Assembly (NCBI GenBank): GCA_046351535.1 | Contig: JAXLYG010000005.1 | Coordinates: 357,334-421,333, forward strand | DNA: 64,000 nt | Direction of reading: 5' to 3' | Source: Polyangiales bacterium | GTDB lineage: Bacteria > Myxococcota_A > Polyangia > Polyangiales > Ga0077539 | Part shown: positions 3,770 to 58,044 of the stretch, piece after piece | Position numbering within the stretch: position 1 is the first letter of the stretch | Layout: the number at the start of each line of letters is the position of its first letter | Notes under the pieces: model-generated | The model's database searches: none | What the model was told of the DNA's origin: nothing | The model's input: the letters and a program-made list of their open reading frames with translations, nothing else | Made by a program: the position numbers and the translations under genes

Positions 3770-5002
3770 ATGCGGCTGCACTCGCTCACACTGACGAACA
3801 TCGGCCCCTTCGACGAAGCGAGCATCGAGTTCCTCGCGGACGGTGACACCTCGGGCAACGTGACGCTGCTCACGGGCGCGAACGGCACCGGCAAGACGAT
3901 CATCCTCGACGCGATTCGAACGCTCTTCGGCTCCGAGTTCGCGACTGTGGAGCGCGACATCTGGCGCAAGGGCGCAGTCGGCGGGATTCGCGGTGACTTC
4001 TCGGAGCCCGTCGAAGGCCGCCAGTCTCGGTTCTCCATCGGCGTCGGGCCCGCCGCGCCTCCGTACTACCCCGTTGGCTTGTCGGTGGAGGTCGCGACCA
4101 ACGTCGGGCGCGGCGCACACCCTCCCCCGTGGGTCGTCGACTTCTGGCGCTCTCAACTGGCGAACGATGCGTACGCCATTACCTCACTCGCAGCGATCAA
4201 TCACCGCGCGCTGTTCAAGGGAGCGCTTCAGGGGGTATCGAGCAACGCGTCGGTGACGCAGCTCCTCTGTCACTTCGACTACCTGCGCGACAGTCGCAAC
4301 GCCCGCGAGCGCGCCACGGGGGAGGCGCTCTACGCGCTCGCGCAGAAGATCGTGCAGATGAGCCTCCTCGACGGCGAGCTCAAGGAGATCGAGCGGCTCA
4401 CCTTCACGCCCATCGTCCGTCAGGGCGGGCACGACGTTCCGCTCGCGAGCATCAGCAGCGGCAACGCCTACCTCGTGCAGCGCATGATCACGCTCCTCGG
4501 GCGCATGTACTCGCTCCACGTGCTGCGTGACGGCGACCCCGCGAAGCTCCACGAGGCTTCTGGACTGCTCCTCATCGACGAGGCCGAGAACCACCTTCAC
4601 CCCTCGTGGCAGAAGAGCCTGCTGCCCAATGTGAGAGAGGTCTTTCCCAACCTCCAGATCATCGCCGCGACGCACTCACCCTTCGTCGTGGCGTCGGTGC
4701 GCGACGCGCGCGTCTACGTCTGCCACTACGACCCGACCACGCGTCGCACGACGGTGCGCGAAGAGACCGCGATCTATCAGAACAAGCCCGTCGACGAGAT
4801 CCTCATGTCGCCCGCGTTCGATCAGACGGCGCCCTTTGGAGAACCCATCAGCACGCTCCTCGCAGATCGCCGCCTCGCGATGGCGAAGGGAGACGTTGCG
4901 ACGCGCGACGAGATCGAACGGCGGCTCGTCGATCTCAACCCCACGTACTTCGGCTACCTCGACCTCGATCGGAAGATCGAGGCGCTGCGCAAGGCGGGCT
5001 GA
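3770..5002 (+). CDS. ABC-type AAA ATPase (AAA_15/AAA_21-like), Septu PtuA-like
   Basis: Walker A GANGTGKT at N-terminus, Walker B LLLIDEAENHLHP, and ATHSP motif near C-terminus. Stop overlaps the start of the HNH gene by 1 nt. Confidence 0.8.
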   Translation: MRLHSLTLTNIGPFDEASIEFLADGDTSGNVTLLTGANGTGKTIILDAIRTLFGSEFATVERDIWRKGAVGGIRGDFSEPVEGRQSRFSIGVGPAAPPYYPVGLSVEVATNVGRGAHPPPWVVDFWRSQLANDAYAITSLAAINHRALFKGALQGVSSNASVTQLLCHFDYLRDSRNARERATGEALYALAQKIVQMSLLDGELKEIERLTFTPIVRQGGHDVPLASISSGNAYLVQRMITLLGRMYSLHVLRDGDPAKLHEASGLLLIDEAENHLHPSWQKSLLPNVREVFPNLQIIAATHSPFVVASVRDARVYVCHYDPTTRRTTVREETAIYQNKPVDEILMSPAFDQTAPFGEPISTLLADRRLAMAKGDVATRDEIERRLVDLNPTYFGYLDLDRKIEALRKAG

Positions 5003-8897: not shown

Positions 8898-9300
8898 GAG
8901 AGGCCCCCTCCCCGTCCCTCCCCCGCGAAGCGGGGAGGGATGCTGAGAGGCCCCCTCCCCGTCCCTCCCCCGCGAAGCGGGAGGTGCCTGTTGGTAGCTG
9001 GCATGCCCTCACCCCGGCCCTCTCCCGCCGAGGCGGGAGAGGGAGGCTCGGCGAGAGGCAGCGGCGCACGGCGCCCAGGCACCTCGTTGCATCGAAATCA
9101 CCTCTCGCCTCAGCCCCTCGCCCGTTCGCACGTCTGCTCGCACGTCTGCCCACTCCTTCGCCCGCTCGCCCGCCCGCACCCCCGCGCCCTCGTGGCACCC
9201 GTGCGCTCCCTCTCCCGCCTCTGGCGGGGAGCAGGGCGGGGCATTCCAGCTACCAACAGGCACCCTCTCCCGCTTCGCGGGGAGGGACGAGAGGGGCTCG
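8898..9300. repeat. Cluster of REP-like palindromic elements forming a large inverted-repeat structure (MITE-like)
   Basis: Two tandem copies of gagaggccccctccccgtccctcccccgcgaagcggggaggg (8899-8984). tgcctgttggtagctggcatgccc (8985-9008) is inverted at 9238-9262. Further palindromes ctctcccgccgaggcgggagaggg and ccctctcccgcttcgcggggaggg lie on the right arm. Confidence 0.65.
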
Positions 9301-50343: not shown

Positions 50344-51356
50344 GTCGCAGCGCCCTCCGCGGCCTCGCGCTCCGTGCGAGAGCGCGCGAAGAGCTCCGCG
50401 AGCACCTCGTCGAGGGGCGGCTCCTCGACGGCGAGGTCGCTCGTCTCACAGCGCGCGAGGGCCAGCGAGACCACCGCCGAGAGCGCCTCCTGCGGCACCT
50501 GGAGCACCAGCTCCGATTCCGTGACAGATGACACCTTCGCGCCTGCGCGCTCGATGGCCTCGATGGCCTCGGGGCTCGCCGCGGTCGCGAGGCGCATCAG
50601 CACGCGCCGCCCCGGTCGCACGCGCGCCACGAGGGCCTCGCGCGAGCCGTCGTACACGATGCGCCCGTGATCGATCACGAGGATGCGCGGGCAGAGCGCC
50701 GTGACGTCGTCCATCGCGTGCGACGTGAGGATCACCGTGGCCCCGTGGCGCTCGTTGTAGTCCTTCACGAAGCGACGCACGGCCGACTGCATCACCACGT
50801 CGAGGCCCACGGTGGGCTCGTCGAGAAAGAGCACCTTGGGCCGGTGGAGCAGCGCCGCCGCGAGCTCGCACTTCATCCGCTCGCCGAGCGAGAGCTGACG
50901 CACGGGCTTGTCGAGCACGTCGCCGAGGTCGAGCAGTTTCTTCAGTTCGTCGAGCGTGTCGCGGTACGCGCGCTCGGGCACCTCGTAGATGGCGCGGTTG
51001 AGCGCGAAGGTCTCGGCCGCGGGGAGGTCCCACAGGAGCTGCTGCTTCTGCCCCGCGACGAGCGTGATCGTGCGGAGAAAGGCGGGCTCCCTGCGCGCCG
51101 GGTCGTGGCCGTCGACGCGCACCACGCCCGAGGTCGGCGTGAGCAGGCCCGCCATGCACTTGAGCGTCGTGGTCTTGCCCGCGCCGTTGGGGCCGAGAAA
51201 GCCCACGCGCTCACCCGCCGCGAGGTCGAGGTCGATGCCGCCCACGGCGGTCACCGTGCGGTGCTCGCGCTTCACGAGCGCCTTGAGCGCCGCGACGAGC
51301 CCCGGCGGACGCACGGGGACCCGATACTCCTTCACGAGTCCGCGGACCGAGATCAT
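50340..51356 (-). CDS. ABC transporter ATP-binding protein
   Basis: Walker A GPNGAGKTT, signature LSLGERMK, Walker B VLFLDEPT, H-loop. Confidence 0.9.
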   Translation of the reverse strand: MISVRGLVKEYRVPVRPPGLVAALKALVKREHRTVTAVGGIDLDLAAGERVGFLGPNGAGKTTTLKCMAGLLTPTSGVVRVDGHDPARREPAFLRTITLVAGQKQQLLWDLPAAETFALNRAIYEVPERAYRDTLDELKKLLDLGDVLDKPVRQLSLGERMKCELAAALLHRPKVLFLDEPTVGLDVVMQSAVRRFVKDYNERHGATVILTSHAMDDVTALCPRILVIDHGRIVYDGSREALVARVRPGRRVLMRLATAASPEAIEAIERAGAKVSSVTESELVLQVPQEALSAVVSLALARCETSDLAVEEPPLDEVLAELFARSRTEREAAEGAAT

Positions 51357-51398
51357 AGGGGGGATGTTCGTTACCAGCGCGCGCCCGCCGCGTCGACC

Positions 51399-52286
51399 TC
51401 AGTCGCCCTCGGGCGGCGCAGGATCGAAGGTCGCGCCGAGGCCCGAGAGGTCCTTTCGCGTGCGGTCGAGCACCATGCGCCAGAACGTGAGGCTCACCTC
51501 GGGCGCGAGGCGGTCCATGAGCCACAGGGCCTTCCACCAGCGGGGGATCACGATCACGGCCTCGTCGCGCAGCACCGCGTCGAGGGCCTCGCGCGCGAAC
51601 ACGGGCGGGTCGAGGGGACGCAGCCGCTCCCACACCTTCAAGATGTCCGCGTCGCCGAGGCCGAGGTTCGCGCGGCCGTAGCGCCCCCCCGTGAGGATCG
51701 CCGTGCGCACCACGCCGGGGCACAGCGCCGAGACCTTCACCCCGTGGCGCCTCGCCTCGACGCGCAGGCTCTTCGAGAGCCCCACCACGGCGTGCTTCGA
51801 AGCCACGTAGCTCACCTCGCCGGGCGTGGGCATGAGACCCGCGACCGAGGCCGTGTTCACGATGTGCCCCGACCCCCGCGCGACCATCCATCGGTAGACG
51901 GCCTGCACGCCGTTGGTCACGCCGCGGACGTTCACGTCGACGACGTCGTCCCAGTCGGCGGGGGTGTAGCGCGCGACCTCGCCGCCGACGCCGATGCCCG
52001 CGTTGTTGAAGAGGTAGTCGATGCCGCCGGCGCGCCTGCGCACGTCTCTCGCGACCGCGGTGAAGGCCGCGCCGTCGCGCACGTCGAGCTCGACCGCGTG
52101 GGCGCGCGCGCCCTTCGCGGTGAGCTCCGCGGCGGCCTCTTCGGCGAGCGCGCGCTGACGGTCTGCGAGCACGACCTCGCCGCCGCGCGCGCAGAACTCC
52201 GACGCGAGCGCGCGGCCGATGCCCGACGCGCCGCCCGTGATGAGCGCGACCTTGCCCGTGAGTGAGGCTTGTCCCCGTGTGCGCAT
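51399..52286 (-). CDS. SDR-family oxidoreductase
   Basis: VALITGGASGIGRALA, NNAG, YVASKHAV (YxxxK). Confidence 0.85.
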   Translation of the reverse strand: MRTRGQASLTGKVALITGGASGIGRALASEFCARGGEVVLADRQRALAEEAAAELTAKGARAHAVELDVRDGAAFTAVARDVRRRAGGIDYLFNNAGIGVGGEVARYTPADWDDVVDVNVRGVTNGVQAVYRWMVARGSGHIVNTASVAGLMPTPGEVSYVASKHAVVGLSKSLRVEARRHGVKVSALCPGVVRTAILTGGRYGRANLGLGDADILKVWERLRPLDPPVFAREALDAVLRDEAVIVIPRWWKALWLMDRLAPEVSLTFWRMVLDRTRKDLSGLGATFDPAPPEGD

Positions 52287-52333
52287 CGCGCGAGCGTATC
52301 ACCGGGGCGCGCGGTGACGGTATCGTCGCGCCG

Positions 52334-52627
52334 ATGTCCGACGCCCGATGGACCGTGTACCTCCTGCGATGCGCCGACGGATCGCTCTACGCGGGGATCA
52401 CCAACGACCTCGCCGCGCGCCTCGACGCGCACAACAAGGGACGCGGCGCGAAGTACACCCGCGCGAGGCTCCCCGTGGTCGTCGCGTGGAGCCGCGGGCG
52501 GCAGCACCCCACCGACGCGCGACGGCTCGAGCGCGCGATCAAGTCGCTCACCCGCGCGGAGAAGCTCCGGCTCACCGACGGAGACGAGGCCCTCTGGCGG
52601 AGGCTCCGACGCGCGACCCTCGGGTGA
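52334..52627 (+). CDS. GIY-YIG nuclease family protein (small UPF0213-type)
   Basis: WTVYLLRCADGSLYAGITNDLAARLDAHNKG is a GIY-YIG core (Y...Y, R, E, N). About 97 aa. Confidence 0.8.
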   Translation: MSDARWTVYLLRCADGSLYAGITNDLAARLDAHNKGRGAKYTRARLPVVVAWSRGRQHPTDARRLERAIKSLTRAEKLRLTDGDEALWRRLRRATLG

Positions 52628-52757
52628 TTCCGGCGCGCCGTCGAGGGCGCCTCGGGGGCGCCACTATCGGCTTGACCGGGTGGGCCCTCCTCGCGTCCCA
52701 TTCCCATGGGGGACGAGCGGGCATGTCACGCGTCCCACGTCAGGGAGGCGACCACCC

Positions 52758-55700
52758 ATGGACCGCATCGACTCGATCGGCAGGATCCTCGAAGACCTCG
52801 CGCGCACGCTCGACTCGCCAGACCTCGACCCCGACCCGTCGCGCGCCGACTGGTCGACCGTCGAAGGCCGCGTCGCGCAGGCCCGCGGCCTCGTGAACGA
52901 CAGGCTCTTTCTCGACTACGCGACGAAGCTCGACGAAGACGAGGCCCGCGGCACGCCCTCGGGCAACGCCCGCGACGCCGCCGCGTCGACGGTGGGCGAG
53001 CTCGTCGCGCTCTGCGCGGTGTCGGGGCACGGCGACGACGCGAAGACGCTCCTCGACGTCGCGCAGCGCCTCGCCCCGAAGAGCGGCCCCGTGCGGGATG
53101 AGCTCGACGCCGCGCGCTCGCACCTCGACGGCTACGCGATGCTGGTCCGCGCGCGCTGGCTCCTGCGGGCGCAGCGAGAGTCCGAGGGCGACAAGCTGCT
53201 CCGCTCGATCGTGAAGACCGTGACGGAGCCGCGGCTCCGGGAGCGGGCGCGCGTCACGCTCGACGGGCCTCGCTCGCTCAACGGCTCGGTGCCGTCGCTC
53301 TTTCGCATCAACGGCTTCGGCGTGGGGCTCTACGGCTCGCGCGACCCGTGGCCCGACGGGTCGTACGTCACCACGCTCTGCCTCTCGGCGCTGTTCATCC
53401 CGGTGTTTCCGCTGCGGTCGTACCGGGTGAAGCCCGACGCGCGGGGCTGGGTCTTCTTCGCGCGCCACCGCCTCTCGCGCTTCGCCCGCGGCGTTCAGGC
53501 CGTGGTGCTCGGGAGCGCGCTCGCGGGCGGCGCCGCGATGGGCTACCAGTCGTGGGCAGCGTCGCCCGAGCACATCGCCTCCGTCGCGTTCGACGCCGCG
53601 GCGGCCGCGGAGCGAGACCACCACGAGGATCAGGCCCTCCGCGCGTACGAGTCGCTGCTCCAGACGAGCGCGTCGCGGCTCTCGTCGGGCGACCTCGGCC
53701 GCGCCTCGGAGGGCTTCGCGCGCCTCGCGCTCCGCGGTGTTCACGAGCCCCTCGCGATCGCGGACGTCGACCACGCGGAGCGCGTCGTGCGGCGCTTCAC
53801 GTCGCTCCCCGTCGACGCGAAGACCCCGCGCGCCGAAGGGCTCTTCACCGCCGCCGTCACGCGCTGGATGGCGCAGGTCGGCGCCGCCTCGCCCGCCGCC
53901 ACGCAGGCGACGCTGCGGCTCGCCGAGCTCGGCGCGCGCGTCGCTGCGCCAGGCTATCGCACGCCCTTCGACGAGAAGCGCGTCGAGATGGAGCGCCGCA
54001 TCGCCGCGCGCTTCGGCGCCGCGTGGCCCCTCGAGGCGCTGCCGCACCTGATCGCCGTGGGGCCCTCGGCCGTGCAGGAGACCCGATCCCTGGTCGAGTC
54101 GGTGCTCGCGTCGCCCTCGCTCGCGCTCGCAGGCTTCGACGAGCTCCGCACGTGGCAGCGCGCCGTGCGAGACGAGCGCGATCCCGCGCTCGTGGCGCTC
54201 TCTCGTGACGTGACCGACAGGCTCACGCGGGCCGGGGAGCTCGCCGCGACGCCCGCGCGCAGGCAGGCGCTCGAGACCGGGCAGCGCCCCGCGCTCGAAG
54301 CGTGGGCGCAGGCGCACCCCGACGACCAGGAGGTGGTCGCGACCCTCGCGACGCAGCGTCGACGCGAGGGCGCCAACGCCGAGGCGCTCCAGATCATCAC
54401 CGCGATCGGCGCGCCGGGGCGCATGACCCCCGGGGTGCGCCTCGCCTACGCCGATCTGCTCGCGGACACGGGCCGCATCGCCGACGCCGACGAGGTGCTC
54501 TCGCGCACGCTCGAGACGCGGCTGCCCCGCTTTCAGGCCGCGCAGCGCGCGTGGGCAGAGGCCATCGAGCGCGTCGAGCAGGGCCTCGTCAGCACGGCGC
54601 GCAGCGGGGGTCTGCCGACGGACGTGCAGGAGCGCATGCGCGACAAGGCCGAGGCCGAGCAGCGGCAGATCTTCGGCGAGTGGGTGCGCGAGATGATGCG
54701 CAACGCGCCCGAGCTCAACGAGCCGCGCAGCGCGATGGAGCGCGTCTCCGACGTGGTGCCCACGGCGCTCACGCTCGGGATGATCAAGCTCCGACGGGCC
54801 AACGAGTTCGACGGAGACGAGCGGCGCCGCGCGCTCGGAGAGGCCGAGCGGCTCTTCCTCGCGATCCGCGATCAGGCCGAGGGGACGCCCGCGTTTCGCC
54901 TCGGCCTGGGCCAGGTCTATCACCGCCTCGGGCGCGCCGCCGAGGGTGACCGCGAGCTCAACGCGCTGCTCTCGGAGGGCGACGCGCAGCAGAAGCTCGC
55001 GGTGGCGTCGGTGTACCGCGACCTCGGGGTCACCGACCGCGCGCGCACCATCGCGCAGGGGGTCTTCGACGCGAGCGACGGCGACGCGAAGGGCGCCGCG
55101 GCGATGACGATGGCGCTCCTCGCCGACACGCTCGAAGACGAGGAGATGTGGCTGCGACGGGCGCCGGCGACGCTCCCGCGCCTGCACATCCGGCTGCGTG
55201 AGGTCGAGGCGAAGAAGCTCTTTCGCGACGGTCACCTCGCCGAGGCCGACCGGGCCTTCAGCGAGGTCGCGGCGGAGTACAGCCGCGACGCCTCGCACGA
55301 CGGCGCGTCGGCCAACAACGCCGCGATCGCGGAGTTCGCGCGCTTCGGGTGCACCGGCGACGTCGGGCGCGTCGACGCGGGCGTCGGTCTGCTGGAGCAG
55401 GCGCGGCGCCACTCGCCCGAGAGCTCCATCGTGGCGAGCAACCTCGCGGACGCGCTGCTCTTCCGCGGCGGGCTCCGGGTGCTCTCGGGCTTCGCGCGGG
55501 TGAGCGTGATGCGGCCCGAGACGAACGAGCTCGACGGGATGCTCGACGCCCTCTCGCACGGCGCGCAGCGCGAGGCGGCGCTCACGGCGCTGCGCCGTGA
55601 TCCGTCGATTCAGCAGGGGCTCGAGCTGCTCCGCCAGGCGACGGTGCTCTCGCCCGAGCGCGTGGAGCTCTACGCGCAGGAGCTCGACGTGCTCAGCCGC

Positions 55701-56429
55701 GTCGACGACGCCGCGGCGATGCTTCGGCTCCAGGGGCGCCTCCAGCGCGTCGAGCGCCTCGACACGAGCGCGCTCATGTCGCGCCTCCGCCGCTGGCAGG
55801 ACGGCCTCGAAGACGCGATGGTCCGTCAGACGGCCTCCTCGGGCGTGGCGCGCGCCGCGCACGCGGTCACCGAGGTCGAGCGGACCCACGACGCGCCCTC
55901 GCTCGCCCTCACGCTCGAGAACCACGCCCGCGCGCTGCTCTACCGGGCCCGCGTCACCGGCAGCGCCGACGACGCGCGCGCCGCCGCGGACCTCCGTCGT
56001 CGCGCGGCGTCGACGTGGGACGGCGTGGCCGACCCCAGGGCGCTCGCGTCGGCGCTCCTTGAGGCGGCGGTGCTGGCGAGCGTCGGCTCCGACGAGACGC
56101 TTCGACGGGCGCGCGACGCAGACTGGCGCATGTACCCCACGGACCAGTCGCTCCTGCGGCTGCGTCAGTCGGGTGCCGACGGCGTCGCGGCGCTCGCGAG
56201 GCTGCGCGCGCGCCCCGAGGTCGGGGAGGCCCTCACGCTGCTTCGCGCGGCCTCCGCGCGGGAGCCCGGGAGCTCGGACCTCATCCTCGCGCGCGCCTTC
56301 GCCGACGAGGCGCTCCTCTCGACCGCGCAGGGCGCGGCGTCGCGTGACGTCGTGACGCTCGCGCTCGCCATCGAGGCGATCCTCCGACCGACCTCCGCGT
56401 CGAGGGAGCGCGTCTCCGCCGTGCGCTGA
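52758..56429 (+). CDS. Large (~1220 aa) alpha-helical TPR-like repeat protein with an N-proximal transmembrane/hydrophobic module
   Basis: ATG 52758 in frame with the long ORF. Hydrophobic segment TTLCLSALFIPVFPL and AVVLGSALAGGAAMG. Rest is a helical repeat architecture. The antisense 1275-aa ORF is Arg-rich nonsense. Confidence 0.55.
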   Translation: MDRIDSIGRILEDLARTLDSPDLDPDPSRADWSTVEGRVAQARGLVNDRLFLDYATKLDEDEARGTPSGNARDAAASTVGELVALCAVSGHGDDAKTLLDVAQRLAPKSGPVRDELDAARSHLDGYAMLVRARWLLRAQRESEGDKLLRSIVKTVTEPRLRERARVTLDGPRSLNGSVPSLFRINGFGVGLYGSRDPWPDGSYVTTLCLSALFIPVFPLRSYRVKPDARGWVFFARHRLSRFARGVQAVVLGSALAGGAAMGYQSWAASPEHIASVAFDAAAAAERDHHEDQALRAYESLLQTSASRLSSGDLGRASEGFARLALRGVHEPLAIADVDHAERVVRRFTSLPVDAKTPRAEGLFTAAVTRWMAQVGAASPAATQATLRLAELGARVAAPGYRTPFDEKRVEMERRIAARFGAAWPLEALPHLIAVGPSAVQETRSLVESVLASPSLALAGFDELRTWQRAVRDERDPALVALSRDVTDRLTRAGELAATPARRQALETGQRPALEAWAQAHPDDQEVVATLATQRRREGANAEALQIITAIGAPGRMTPGVRLAYADLLADTGRIADADEVLSRTLETRLPRFQAAQRAWAEAIERVEQGLVSTARSGGLPTDVQERMRDKAEAEQRQIFGEWVREMMRNAPELNEPRSAMERVSDVVPTALTLGMIKLRRANEFDGDERRRALGEAERLFLAIRDQAEGTPAFRLGLGQVYHRLGRAAEGDRELNALLSEGDAQQKLAVASVYRDLGVTDRARTIAQGVFDASDGDAKGAAAMTMALLADTLEDEEMWLRRAPATLPRLHIRLREVEAKKLFRDGHLAEADRAFSEVAAEYSRDASHDGASANNAAIAEFARFGCTGDVGRVDAGVGLLEQARRHSPESSIVASNLADALLFRGGLRVLSGFARVSVMRPETNELDGMLDALSHGAQREAALTALRRDPSIQQGLELLRQATVLSPERVELYAQELDVLSRVDDAAAMLRLQGRLQRVERLDTSALMSRLRRWQDGLEDAMVRQTASSGVARAAHAVTEVERTHDAPSLALTLENHARALLYRARVTGSADDARAAADLRRRAASTWDGVADPRALASALLEAAVLASVGSDETLRRARDADWRMYPTDQSLLRLRQSGADGVAALARLRARPEVGEALTLLRAASAREPGSSDLILARAFADEALLSTAQGAASRDVVTLALAIEAILRPTSASRERVSAVR

Positions 56430-56443
56430 GCGCGCGCGACGCC

Positions 56444-57298
56444 CTATCCGCGACGTCCGAGTCCGAAGAGGCGACCGGGGCCCGCGTCGACGTGGCACCC
56501 CATGCACGCCGCGATGCGCCCCGACGAGGTGACCTCGCCTTCGGGCGAGACCGTCCCGTAGATCCATCCACGGTCGGAGCGCGGATCGCGCGCGTCAACG
56601 CGCATCATCACGAAGAGCCCCGCGGGCTGATCGGGCTCCACGGTGGCGCCCTCGGGGGTGCGCGCGACGAGGTGCGCGGCGTGGACCTGGGTGGCGTGCG
56701 CGAGGTCGACGGGGCGGTGCGTCCACGACTCCTTCACGATCACCTGGAGCCTCGACGCGGTGCGCGCGAGGTACGCCGTTCGGTCTCGCGCATAGAGGAA
56801 ATAGACCGTCTGCGTGGGCCCGCCCGACGCGGCGGCGCTGAGCCTCGGGAGGCTCGGCCGGGGCTGTCGACAGAGCCACGGGGCCCATCGGAGCTCGTCG
56901 TCGACGCGTCCCCACGCCACGTACTCGCGCGCGATGGCCGCGAGGCGATCATGCAAGGGCCCCTCGTCGAGCGCGGCTTCCGGCGTGACGTCTTGATGAT
57001 CGGGGCCGAGCGTCCGCGGCGAGGTCTGCCCGCGCAGCCACGGGTGCGCGCGGAGCTCGGCCTCGCTCCACCCCGTGCGTACGAACGGCGCTGCGGGGAC
57101 CACGGGCGCTGCGGGGACCACGGGCGCTGCGGGGACCACGGGCGCTGCGGGGACCACGGGTTGCTGCGCGGGGGCGCCCGCGTCGAAGGTGAGCACGCGG
57201 GGCGCGGGGATGGTCTGCGTGGACGCCGTGCGGGCGTTGATGGCGAGGGCGGCGCACAGGGCCGTGAGGGCCGCGCGAGAGAGCTGCGAGCGGTGCAT
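56444..57298 (-). CDS. Secreted c-type heme protein, possibly cytochrome P460-like, with PAAPVV x4 repeat
   Basis: Signal peptide LTALCAALAINARTAS. Single CXXCH (CMGCH) near the C-terminus as in cytochrome P460 family. 18-bp tandem repeats at about 57088-57160. Confidence 0.45.
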   Translation of the reverse strand: MHRSQLSRAALTALCAALAINARTASTQTIPAPRVLTFDAGAPAQQPVVPAAPVVPAAPVVPAAPVVPAAPFVRTGWSEAELRAHPWLRGQTSPRTLGPDHQDVTPEAALDEGPLHDRLAAIAREYVAWGRVDDELRWAPWLCRQPRPSLPRLSAAASGGPTQTVYFLYARDRTAYLARTASRLQVIVKESWTHRPVDLAHATQVHAAHLVARTPEGATVEPDQPAGLFVMMRVDARDPRSDRGWIYGTVSPEGEVTSSGRIAACMGCHVDAGPGRLFGLGRRG

Positions 57299-57366
57299 CG
57301 AGACTCCGTTGTCGGGTGTGGCGCATTGCAACGGACGAGCTCGGCGGGAGTTCTTCGCGGCGTAGC

Positions 57367-57596
57367 TCTACTGTCCCGGATGAAGCCTGGGCCTTCACGC
57401 CGCGTGTTGGAAACACGCGGCAGGAAACATTTTGTGAGCATCCTGCGAAAAGTCCCGCTTCGCAGGACTCCCAATCGGAGCCTCGTGCGCGAGTCCCGCG
57501 GAGCGGGACTTCATTCAGATCGATCTCGAACTGCCTTCCCTGCCGCGTGTTTCAACACGCGGCGTGGGGGCGCAGCGCTCGTCCGGGACAGTAGAG
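57367..57596. mobile_element. MITE-like element (~230 bp) with perfect 15-bp terminal inverted repeats and internal palindromes
   Basis: TIRs ctctactgtcccgga / tccgggacagtagag. Near-identical subterminal palindromes gccgcgtgttggaaacacgcggc and gccgcgtgtttcaacacgcggc. Central hairpins cctgcgaa...ttcgcagg and gtcccgc-gga-gcgggac. Confidence 0.5.
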
Positions 57597-57657
57597 GTAG
57601 AAAGACGCGCGGGCGGCCGCGCTTCATCACGCGAGGCGCGGCGCGCGACCGCCGCGG

Positions 57658-58044
57658 TCAGGCCTGGCGAGCCTGGTCCTCGCGGCGCGCGCGGAGCGTG
57701 CCGGCGGTGAACGCGACGACGCTCGCGAGGTAGAGCATCGCGGCGATGCCGCCGAACACGGCCGTGGCGTTCATCGCGTTCGAGATCGACCGGGCGAGCA
57801 TCTCGGCCTTGCGCGACGGATCGACGTTGCCGAGCGCCCCGAAGCTCCGCACGAGGAACACCGCCGTGAGCGCGACGCCCAGGAACTCGCTCGCGACCGC
57901 GACGAGCGGGAGCATCGCGGCGCGCTGCCACCACGCGCCCCCGAGGCGGGCGGCGACGCGGCGGCCCCAGGCGTAGAGCGCGACCACCACGCCGATGTGA
58001 ACGGCGAAGCCGAGGAGCGCGGGGAGCGCAGCGAGGACCTCCAT
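57658..58044 (-). CDS. Small membrane protein (MotA/TolQ/ExbB-C-terminal-like?), hypothetical
   Basis: Internal ATG at 58044 (MEVLAALPALLGF...). Three hydrophobic helices. The upstream ORF extension is Arg-rich. Confidence 0.4.
   Translation of the reverse strand: MEVLAALPALLGFAVHIGVVVALYAWGRRVAARLGGAWWQRAAMLPLVAVASEFLGVALTAVFLVRSFGALGNVDPSRKAEMLARSISNAMNATAVFGGIAAMLYLASVVAFTAGTLRARREDQARQA

Follow-up and report, generated by a model that had tools for sequence, protein, structure and literature searches.

Introduction

The Correia elements of Neisseria and RUP are among the named bacterial MITEs, a class of non-autonomous DNA transposon, and we know of no terminal inverted repeats (TIRs) in elements of the IS200/IS605 family. 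MITEs have been defined as noncoding, intergenic sequences of 100-400 bp which carry TIRs, are flanked by a short target-site duplication (TSD), can fold into a hairpin and are mobilised by a transposase acting in trans, with ERIC and NEMIS as examples (PMC3116915). REPINs are described as maintaining their hairpin by compensatory changes, as being excised asymmetrically so that part of the right REP is left behind, and as being associated with a RAYT (Bertels and Rainey, PMC3116915). In one REPIN example, two conserved 16-mers start 71 bp apart (PMC3116915).

Here we analyse an intergenic element in a 64-kb stretch of DNA, referred to below as the window. The element is very probably a non-autonomous DNA transposon of the MITE type, 231 bp long and recently inserted. 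It shares with bacterial MITEs its size, TIRs, short TSD, lack of coding capacity, intergenic position and fold as a long hairpin. It differs from them in that its best conserved part is a perfect 22-bp subterminal palindrome and not the termini, and in that this palindrome is common to subfamilies that differ in their ends and in the length of the duplication.

Results

The element and its surroundings

A preliminary description of this DNA had reported a 230-bp MITE-like element at 57367-57596 with perfect 15-bp TIRs. The exact 15-mer was found, inverted at 57582-57596, and the right end of the element was as described; the left start had been placed one base too high, the element beginning at 57366 and measuring 231 bp. 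The subterminal palindromes with gga and tc loops were both found (57399-57421 and 57542-57563), as were two central hairpins with a GTCCCGC arm, the first of them with one C/A mismatch. The features of the locus are given below, where L047 is a metagenomic contig carrying the same site without the element, and L010 and L019 are loci which carry related copies.

57366-57596: the element, 231 bp, delimited by the empty-site comparison with L047
57366-57380, plus strand: left TIR, CTCTACTGTCCCGGA, an exact 15-mer; the insertion boundary lies exactly here
57381-57398: left outer arm, an imperfect complement of 57564-57581 (inverted repeat I1, 82% over 50 nt)
57399-57421: left subterminal palindrome P, GCCGCGTGTT gga AACACGCGGC; the family in Myxococcota MAGs and metagenomes is defined by this palindrome
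57422-57451: left inner arm, of which 57422-57427 pairs with 57536-57541 (I3, 94%); conserved in L010 and L019
57452-57468: central hairpin 1, GTCCCGC ttc GCAGGAC, with the one C/A mismatch
57493-57509: central hairpin 2, GTCCCGC gga GCGGGAC; stem invariant and loop variable across relatives
57542-57563: right subterminal palindrome P', GCCGCGTGTT tc AACACGCGGC, an inverted copy of P
57564-57581: right outer arm, part of I1; aligns base for base with L010
57582-57596, minus strand: right TIR, TCCGGGACAGTAGAG on the plus strand, an inverted exact copy of the left TIR
57362-57365: left TSD copy, GTAG on the plus strand (CTAC on the gene strand); a single CTAC at the L047 empty site
57597-57600: right TSD copy, GTAG on the plus strand; the second copy, at the filled site only
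57607-57622, minus strand: terminator-like hairpin of the 128-aa gene, GCGCGGccgcCCGCGC then GTCTTTCTAC; context, outside the element
57658-58044, minus strand: upstream neighbour, gene for a 128-aa membrane protein; weak MotA_ExbB-like match, below cut-off
57299-57361, minus strand: leader of the P460-like gene or a block proximal to its promoter, conserved and not interrupted by the insertion
56444-57298, minus strand: downstream neighbour, gene for a 284-aa signal-peptide protein, cytochrome P460-like, with a C-terminal CxxCH

With up to two mismatches allowed, the TIR 15-mer had two matches in the 64-kb window against 0.11 expected by chance, and with three mismatches the same two sites alone were recovered. 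For the 22-23-bp subterminal palindromes, zero chance occurrences are expected in the window; only five distinct hairpins in it have a perfect stem of 9 bp or more, and P and P' are two of these. The subterminal hairpin lies 18 nt in from each end of the element, and 57363-57599 forms a single long imperfect palindrome. Folding as RNA gave -162.9 kcal/mol (z = -14.1 against shuffles, with z near -14 on both strands), and folding as DNA gave -94.2 kcal/mol (z = -13.8 against shuffles). The GC fraction of the element is 0.58-0.64, as against 0.70-0.80 in its surroundings.

The view that there is no convincing open reading frame was borne out. The translation of the 92-aa ORF had no homologue among 5.8 billion and 1.84 billion proteins, and since the stretch is missing from the near-identical relative L047, the ORF is not a gene. 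The two neighbours share the minus strand, which places the element between tandem genes, not between convergent or divergent ones as had been proposed. The assignment of the downstream protein as P460-like rests on a score of 22.2 bits, below the 27-bit cut-off; its homologues carry PF16694, and one distant homologue is named Sandaracinaceae. Exact look-ups of proteins encoded in the window gave no recorded match. Within the P460-like gene, a perfect 18-bp tandem repeat at 57087-57160 (4.1 copies) encodes PAAPVV four times. Two units are present in the 98%-identical L047 protein, and fewer in more distant orthologues; close relatives thus differ in the length of this repeat.

Stable folding raises the question of a native RNA or regulatory function, and the preliminary description had left open whether this was a transposable element or an sRNA. 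A palindrome cluster with a regulatory role, or a gene for a structured sRNA, that belonged to the locus and was immobile would account for the very stable folding on both strands and for a position between a terminator and the leader of the next gene. However, a scan of 57000-58000 against Rfam at a permissive threshold returned nothing above noise. The best match was to an animal microRNA model, mir-9242 (30.3 bits, against a threshold of 62 bits), followed by rsmX (22.3 against 56), so the element scores below the gathering threshold for membership of an Rfam family and the proposed check for a noncoding RNA came out negative. A sigma-70 promoter scan of the element and its vicinity also found no promoter-like site.

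Elsewhere in the window, at 8900-9300, hairpin repeats form another intergenic cluster, unrelated to the element. It comprises tandem units of about 40 bp with CCCTCCCCCGCGAAGCGGGGAGGG at about 8900-8986 and an inverted copy at about 9262-9300, a 26-bp inverted repeat (8983-9008 / 9239-9264, 96%), an inner hairpin, CCCTCTCCCGCC-ga-GGCGGGAGAGGG, at 9018-9043, and a second, imperfect one near 9210-9231. The cluster folds at -175 kcal/mol (z = -7.7), and none of the other fetched loci contained its specific motifs.

Comparison of the filled and the empty site

Homologues of the 128-aa protein led to L047, a contig from a public activated-sludge metagenome. Positions 1-1348 of L047 aligned with 58942-57597 of the window at 99.1% identity, and positions 1345-2666 with 57365-56008 at 96.4% identity. 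These two BLAST pieces share exactly four bases (CTAC), and window positions 57366-57596 have no counterpart. Gene order is the same in L047, with a spacer of 124 bp as against 359 bp in the window. On the gene strand, the empty site reads TCTTT-CTAC-GCCGCG (junction sequence GCGTCTTTCTACGCCGCG) and the filled site reads TCTTT-CTAC-(CTCTACTGTCCCGGA ... TCCGGGACAGTAGAG)-CTAC-GCCGCG. The alignment break and the four-base overlap thus define a 231-bp insertion which ends at the TIRs and is accompanied by a 4-bp duplication.

As a near-identical relative has the same site without the element, the insertion occurred recently. Four more distant orthologous loci (L048 and L050-L052, at about 83% protein identity) have the same gene order and spacers of about 112 bp, and also lack the element. 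This indicates that absence is the ancestral state and that the window represents a recent gain. The element therefore has four of the characteristics by which MITEs are recognised: a length of 231 bp, within the range of about 100-400 bp; TIRs at the exact ends of the insertion, as given by the L047 alignment break; a duplicated target, CTAC being single in L047 and double in the window, with CGAA around the related copy in L010; and no coding capacity, its sole ORF being dispensable and without a homologue.

The preliminary description had named target-site duplications as a check, and had held that a single copy without flanking direct repeats would speak against mobility. There is one copy of the element in the 64-kb window; since flanking direct repeats are present (GTAG on both sides), that objection falls. 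Of its two suggestions, a transposable element is upheld by the empty site, the single 4-bp target and the relatives elsewhere, whereas an sRNA finds no counterpart in Rfam and no promoter-like site. A native, immobile structure at this locus is likewise contradicted: the element is missing both from a relative of 99% identity and from orthologous loci of 83% identity, in which the leader is conserved, and relatives of it lie at unrelated sites elsewhere. We consider such a fixed structure or sRNA gene extremely improbable.

The target CTAC is the end of the tail of the terminator-like hairpin, which is present at the L047 empty site too. The element lies about 64 nt before the start of the P460-like gene. 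The leader of this gene, a block of roughly 63 nt ahead of the start codon, is conserved in all orthologues; in L041, L045, L047, L048 and L050 the conservation extends to within a few bases of the element edge. The element has landed between a terminator and the leader of the next gene. A putative effect of the insertion on expression of the neighbouring transcripts is possible.

An earlier route through orthologues (P0002, loci L041-L044) gave synteny on one side only, to the left of the element, and hence one boundary and no empty site; in this comparison, leader homology ends within a few bases of the element edge. Gene order is shared between the window and these loci, from MAG GCA_054403255.1, over 50448-57152 and then breaks in the intergenic region which bears the element, the upstream gene in L041 being different from that in the window. 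The element thus coincides with a rearrangement (synteny) breakpoint.

Relatives of the element at other loci

We scanned one genome per species with the palindrome GCCGCGTGTT-GA-AACACGCGGC and obtained 25 loci, 15 of them in MAGs labelled Myxococcota, Myxococcales or Deltaproteobacteria. Together with base composition and the distant homologue named Sandaracinaceae, these labels suggest a Myxococcota-like host for the window element. Eleven exact palindromes on seven contigs came from MAG JBPOHC01, and seven on six contigs from MAG JAUSAZ01. Five further high-GC family members were found in a scan of JGI metagenomes. The other matches of the genome scan were isolated hairpins in unrelated bacteria, several of them followed by T-runs, which we take to be putative chance terminators. 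Family copies are strictly intergenic and usually lie a few bases from a stop codon. The palindrome occurs singly (L004, L016, L028), as an inverted pair with loop GA on the left and TC on the right, and once as a triplet (L007). Between and outside the palindromes the sequence differs among subfamilies, always with two more local hairpins and complementary arms.

The closest copy, L010:476-704, is 87% identical over 208 bp and adjoins an 886-aa ORF unrelated to the neighbours of the window element; further relatives are found in L019 (85.5%) and L001 (76%). Central hairpin 1 in relatives reads GTCCTGC/GCAGGAC, with full pairing. The right end of the L010 copy aligns base for base, and CGAA lies on both sides of it when the best inverted match is taken as its left end; as this left boundary was chosen with some freedom, the CGAA repeat is supportive only. 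Its difference from CTAC means that a staggered cut fits better than insertion at a fixed tetranucleotide. GTAG was also considered as a conserved tetranucleotide of the RAYT type and rejected, as these four bases belong to the target, being present in the empty site, and are not shared by L010.

These flanks bear on whether the element could be a palindrome-associated element of the IS200/IS605 type, which would move as single-stranded DNA, insert 3' of CTAC and, with its own right end also being CTAC, mimic a duplication. By sequence alone, junctions of the form CTAC / element ... CTAC are the same as those of such an insertion. Elements derived from IS200/IS605 also share with the window element subterminal hairpins at both ends, here 18 nt inside, and insertion beside a defined tetranucleotide, and the target here adjoins a hairpin. 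However, the window element has perfect 15-mer TIRs, unlike that family, and its tetranucleotide is not a one-sided, fixed one: it is repeated on both sides and changes from CTAC to CGAA between two copies, so that the coincidence of target and own end would be needed twice. The motif of a Y1 transposase was also not found in the window or in loci L001-L040. We therefore regard an IS200/IS605-type element as very improbable.

Only 9-10 of the 15 bases of the window TIR are conserved in L010, whereas the subterminal palindrome is 100% conserved. If recognition depended mainly on the termini, it would be unusual for them to be less conserved than the palindrome in the nearest relative. No further copy with the exact TIRs of the window element was found, the TIR core being absent from all 52 fetched loci. 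The TIR-plus-palindrome pattern was absent from viral contigs, a subfamily-specific pattern (GGGACTTC ... palindrome) had no match in metagenomes, and plasmid and phage collections had no match to the element.

Three of the loci show arrangements of their own. In L007 (3582-3864), three palindromes lie about 130 bp apart, the left half being tandemly duplicated before the inverted right palindrome; this array resembles a BIME cluster, and near-identical copies are at contig ends in L002, L018 and L023. The presence of several copies at contig ends suggests that the family repeat breaks assemblies. In L025 (about 4880-4990), the right-hand 22-bp palindrome is interrupted by a 62-bp mini-palindrome (TGATCCTTCCCGGAAT ... 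ATTCCGGGAAGGATCA) between the two copies of a 12-bp duplication, GTGTTTCAACAC, which shows that the hairpin of the family can itself be an insertion target. In L014 (1-3100), a palindrome doublet lies between a reverse transcriptase gene (YMDD, plus an HRDC-like ORF) and a gene of the formylglycine-generating-enzyme type; the layout recalls diversity-generating retroelements, the domain names here being read off translations and not from a profile search. This association is probably a coincidence, as the neighbours of other copies are unrelated.

A sister subfamily with different termini and longer flanking repeats

Sister subfamilies keep the palindrome and have termini other than those of the window element. 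The subfamily of the L033 type comprises eight copies, which are 90-94% identical to the L033 reference; one MAG contains six of the eight. At least six copies of the sister subfamily are present in MAG JAUSAZ01. Exact flanking direct repeats in this subfamily include GTACTGACCC, GCTGAGCCCC and CCAGCGAGAC. The repeats, in L015, L017, L033, L034, L006 and L004, are about 10 bp long (7-8 bp in three copies), as against 4 bp for the window element, and in most cases the TGA stop of the neighbouring gene falls within them (target roughly CTGAG). The sister subfamily thus appears to be mobile as well. With flanking repeats of this length alongside those of 4 bp, the superfamily as a whole cannot be the work of a single enzyme that cuts with a constant stagger.

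We examined the structure of the sister subfamily, modelled as four local hairpins with paired inner and outer arms, in six sequences. Of the cells in this structure, 92.9% were paired, compared with 32-44% when partners were slid, and nine pairs had changed on both sides. The covariation score was 0.130 against 0.077 in shuffles and was reached in none of 500 shuffles; with only six sequences, this result is indicative. In one variant of the right palindrome, GCCGCGTCCT-TC-AGGGCGCGGC, the hairpin is kept via two double changes. As compensatory changes keep both hairpins and arms in this subfamily, folding, as single-stranded DNA, cruciform or RNA, would matter to the element or to its host.

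Constraint of this kind is also what a REPIN-like element would show, in which two inverted REP-type palindromes form a single-stranded DNA hairpin, a single-copy RAYT recognises the 22-bp palindrome and the TIRs are secondary. The family resembles the REPIN/REP/BIME and RAYT systems in having the palindrome as an inverted doublet with a spacer, with singlets and a triplet array also occurring, in its strictly intergenic copies near the 3' ends of genes, in a palindrome that is fully conserved while the arms diverge, and in a hairpin pair kept by compensatory changes, as in REPINs (PMC3116915). It differs in the features which bear on movement. REPINs are described with asymmetric excision and a RAYT, not with TIRs and a TSD (PMC3116915), whereas the window element was inserted from TIR to TIR, with perfect TIRs outside the palindromes and a clean 4-bp TSD; it is for this reason that we file it as a MITE. 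At 231 bp, it is also longer than the published REPIN example (PMC3116915), and a search of the window and L001-L040 revealed no RAYT. A REPIN-like origin is in our estimation decidedly unlikely.

Search for a mobilising enzyme

The window, the 52 loci, plasmids, phages and viral contigs yielded neither a transposase nor a longer element bounded by the same ends. Pfam analysis of 38 window genes gave housekeeping families; the 25 listed of 64 families do not include a transposase, and a weak match may lie among the others. A relaxed inspection of ORFs beside the copies also revealed no transposase. In a search directed at RAYT and IS200 enzymes, six-frame translations of the window and of L001-L040 contained neither the HUH...Y nor the NPxRA motif. 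No parent insertion sequence was found either in this material, and the element is likened to Correia/NEMIS, ERIC and RUP by features, not by sequence.

Discussion

The window element is a new family of an already known kind of element. Our search of the literature found no description of the palindrome motif or of MITEs in myxobacteria, nor of any such elements in the phylum Myxococcota.

As no transposase or longer same-ended element was found, the enzyme that mobilised this MITE, and its chemistry, are inferred. A transposase encoded elsewhere in the genome would act in trans and bind the ends of the element, and binding would probably include the conserved 22-bp subterminal palindromes. 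The element would be cut out or copied, then joined into a target cut with a 4-base stagger, and repair of the stagger would give rise to the 4-bp duplication. Insertion into the tail of an intrinsic-terminator-like hairpin, before the leader of the next gene, would do little harm.

We also considered a broader proposal, in which the 22-bp palindrome, and not the termini, is the recognition module of a dedicated enzyme of the Myxococcota, possibly single-copy and vertically inherited, and the superfamily is a REPIN-like persistent system. We think this unlikely. If true, it would cover the singlets, doublets, arrays and nested insertions, the different termini, and the duplications of both 4 bp and about 10 bp; unlike RAYT systems, such a system would integrate with target duplications beside hairpins or stop codons.

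The practical consequence of the element is small: its repeats break assemblies and coincide with one synteny breakpoint. The filled and empty alleles provide a ready strain marker for the population. As a recent insertion of very probably MITE type, the element is a clean and datable example of a recently active miniature transposon in an uncultured, high-GC, Myxococcota-like bacterium of activated sludge. The family to which it belongs mixes features of MITEs and of REPINs, and is thus a useful case for what such elements are selected for.
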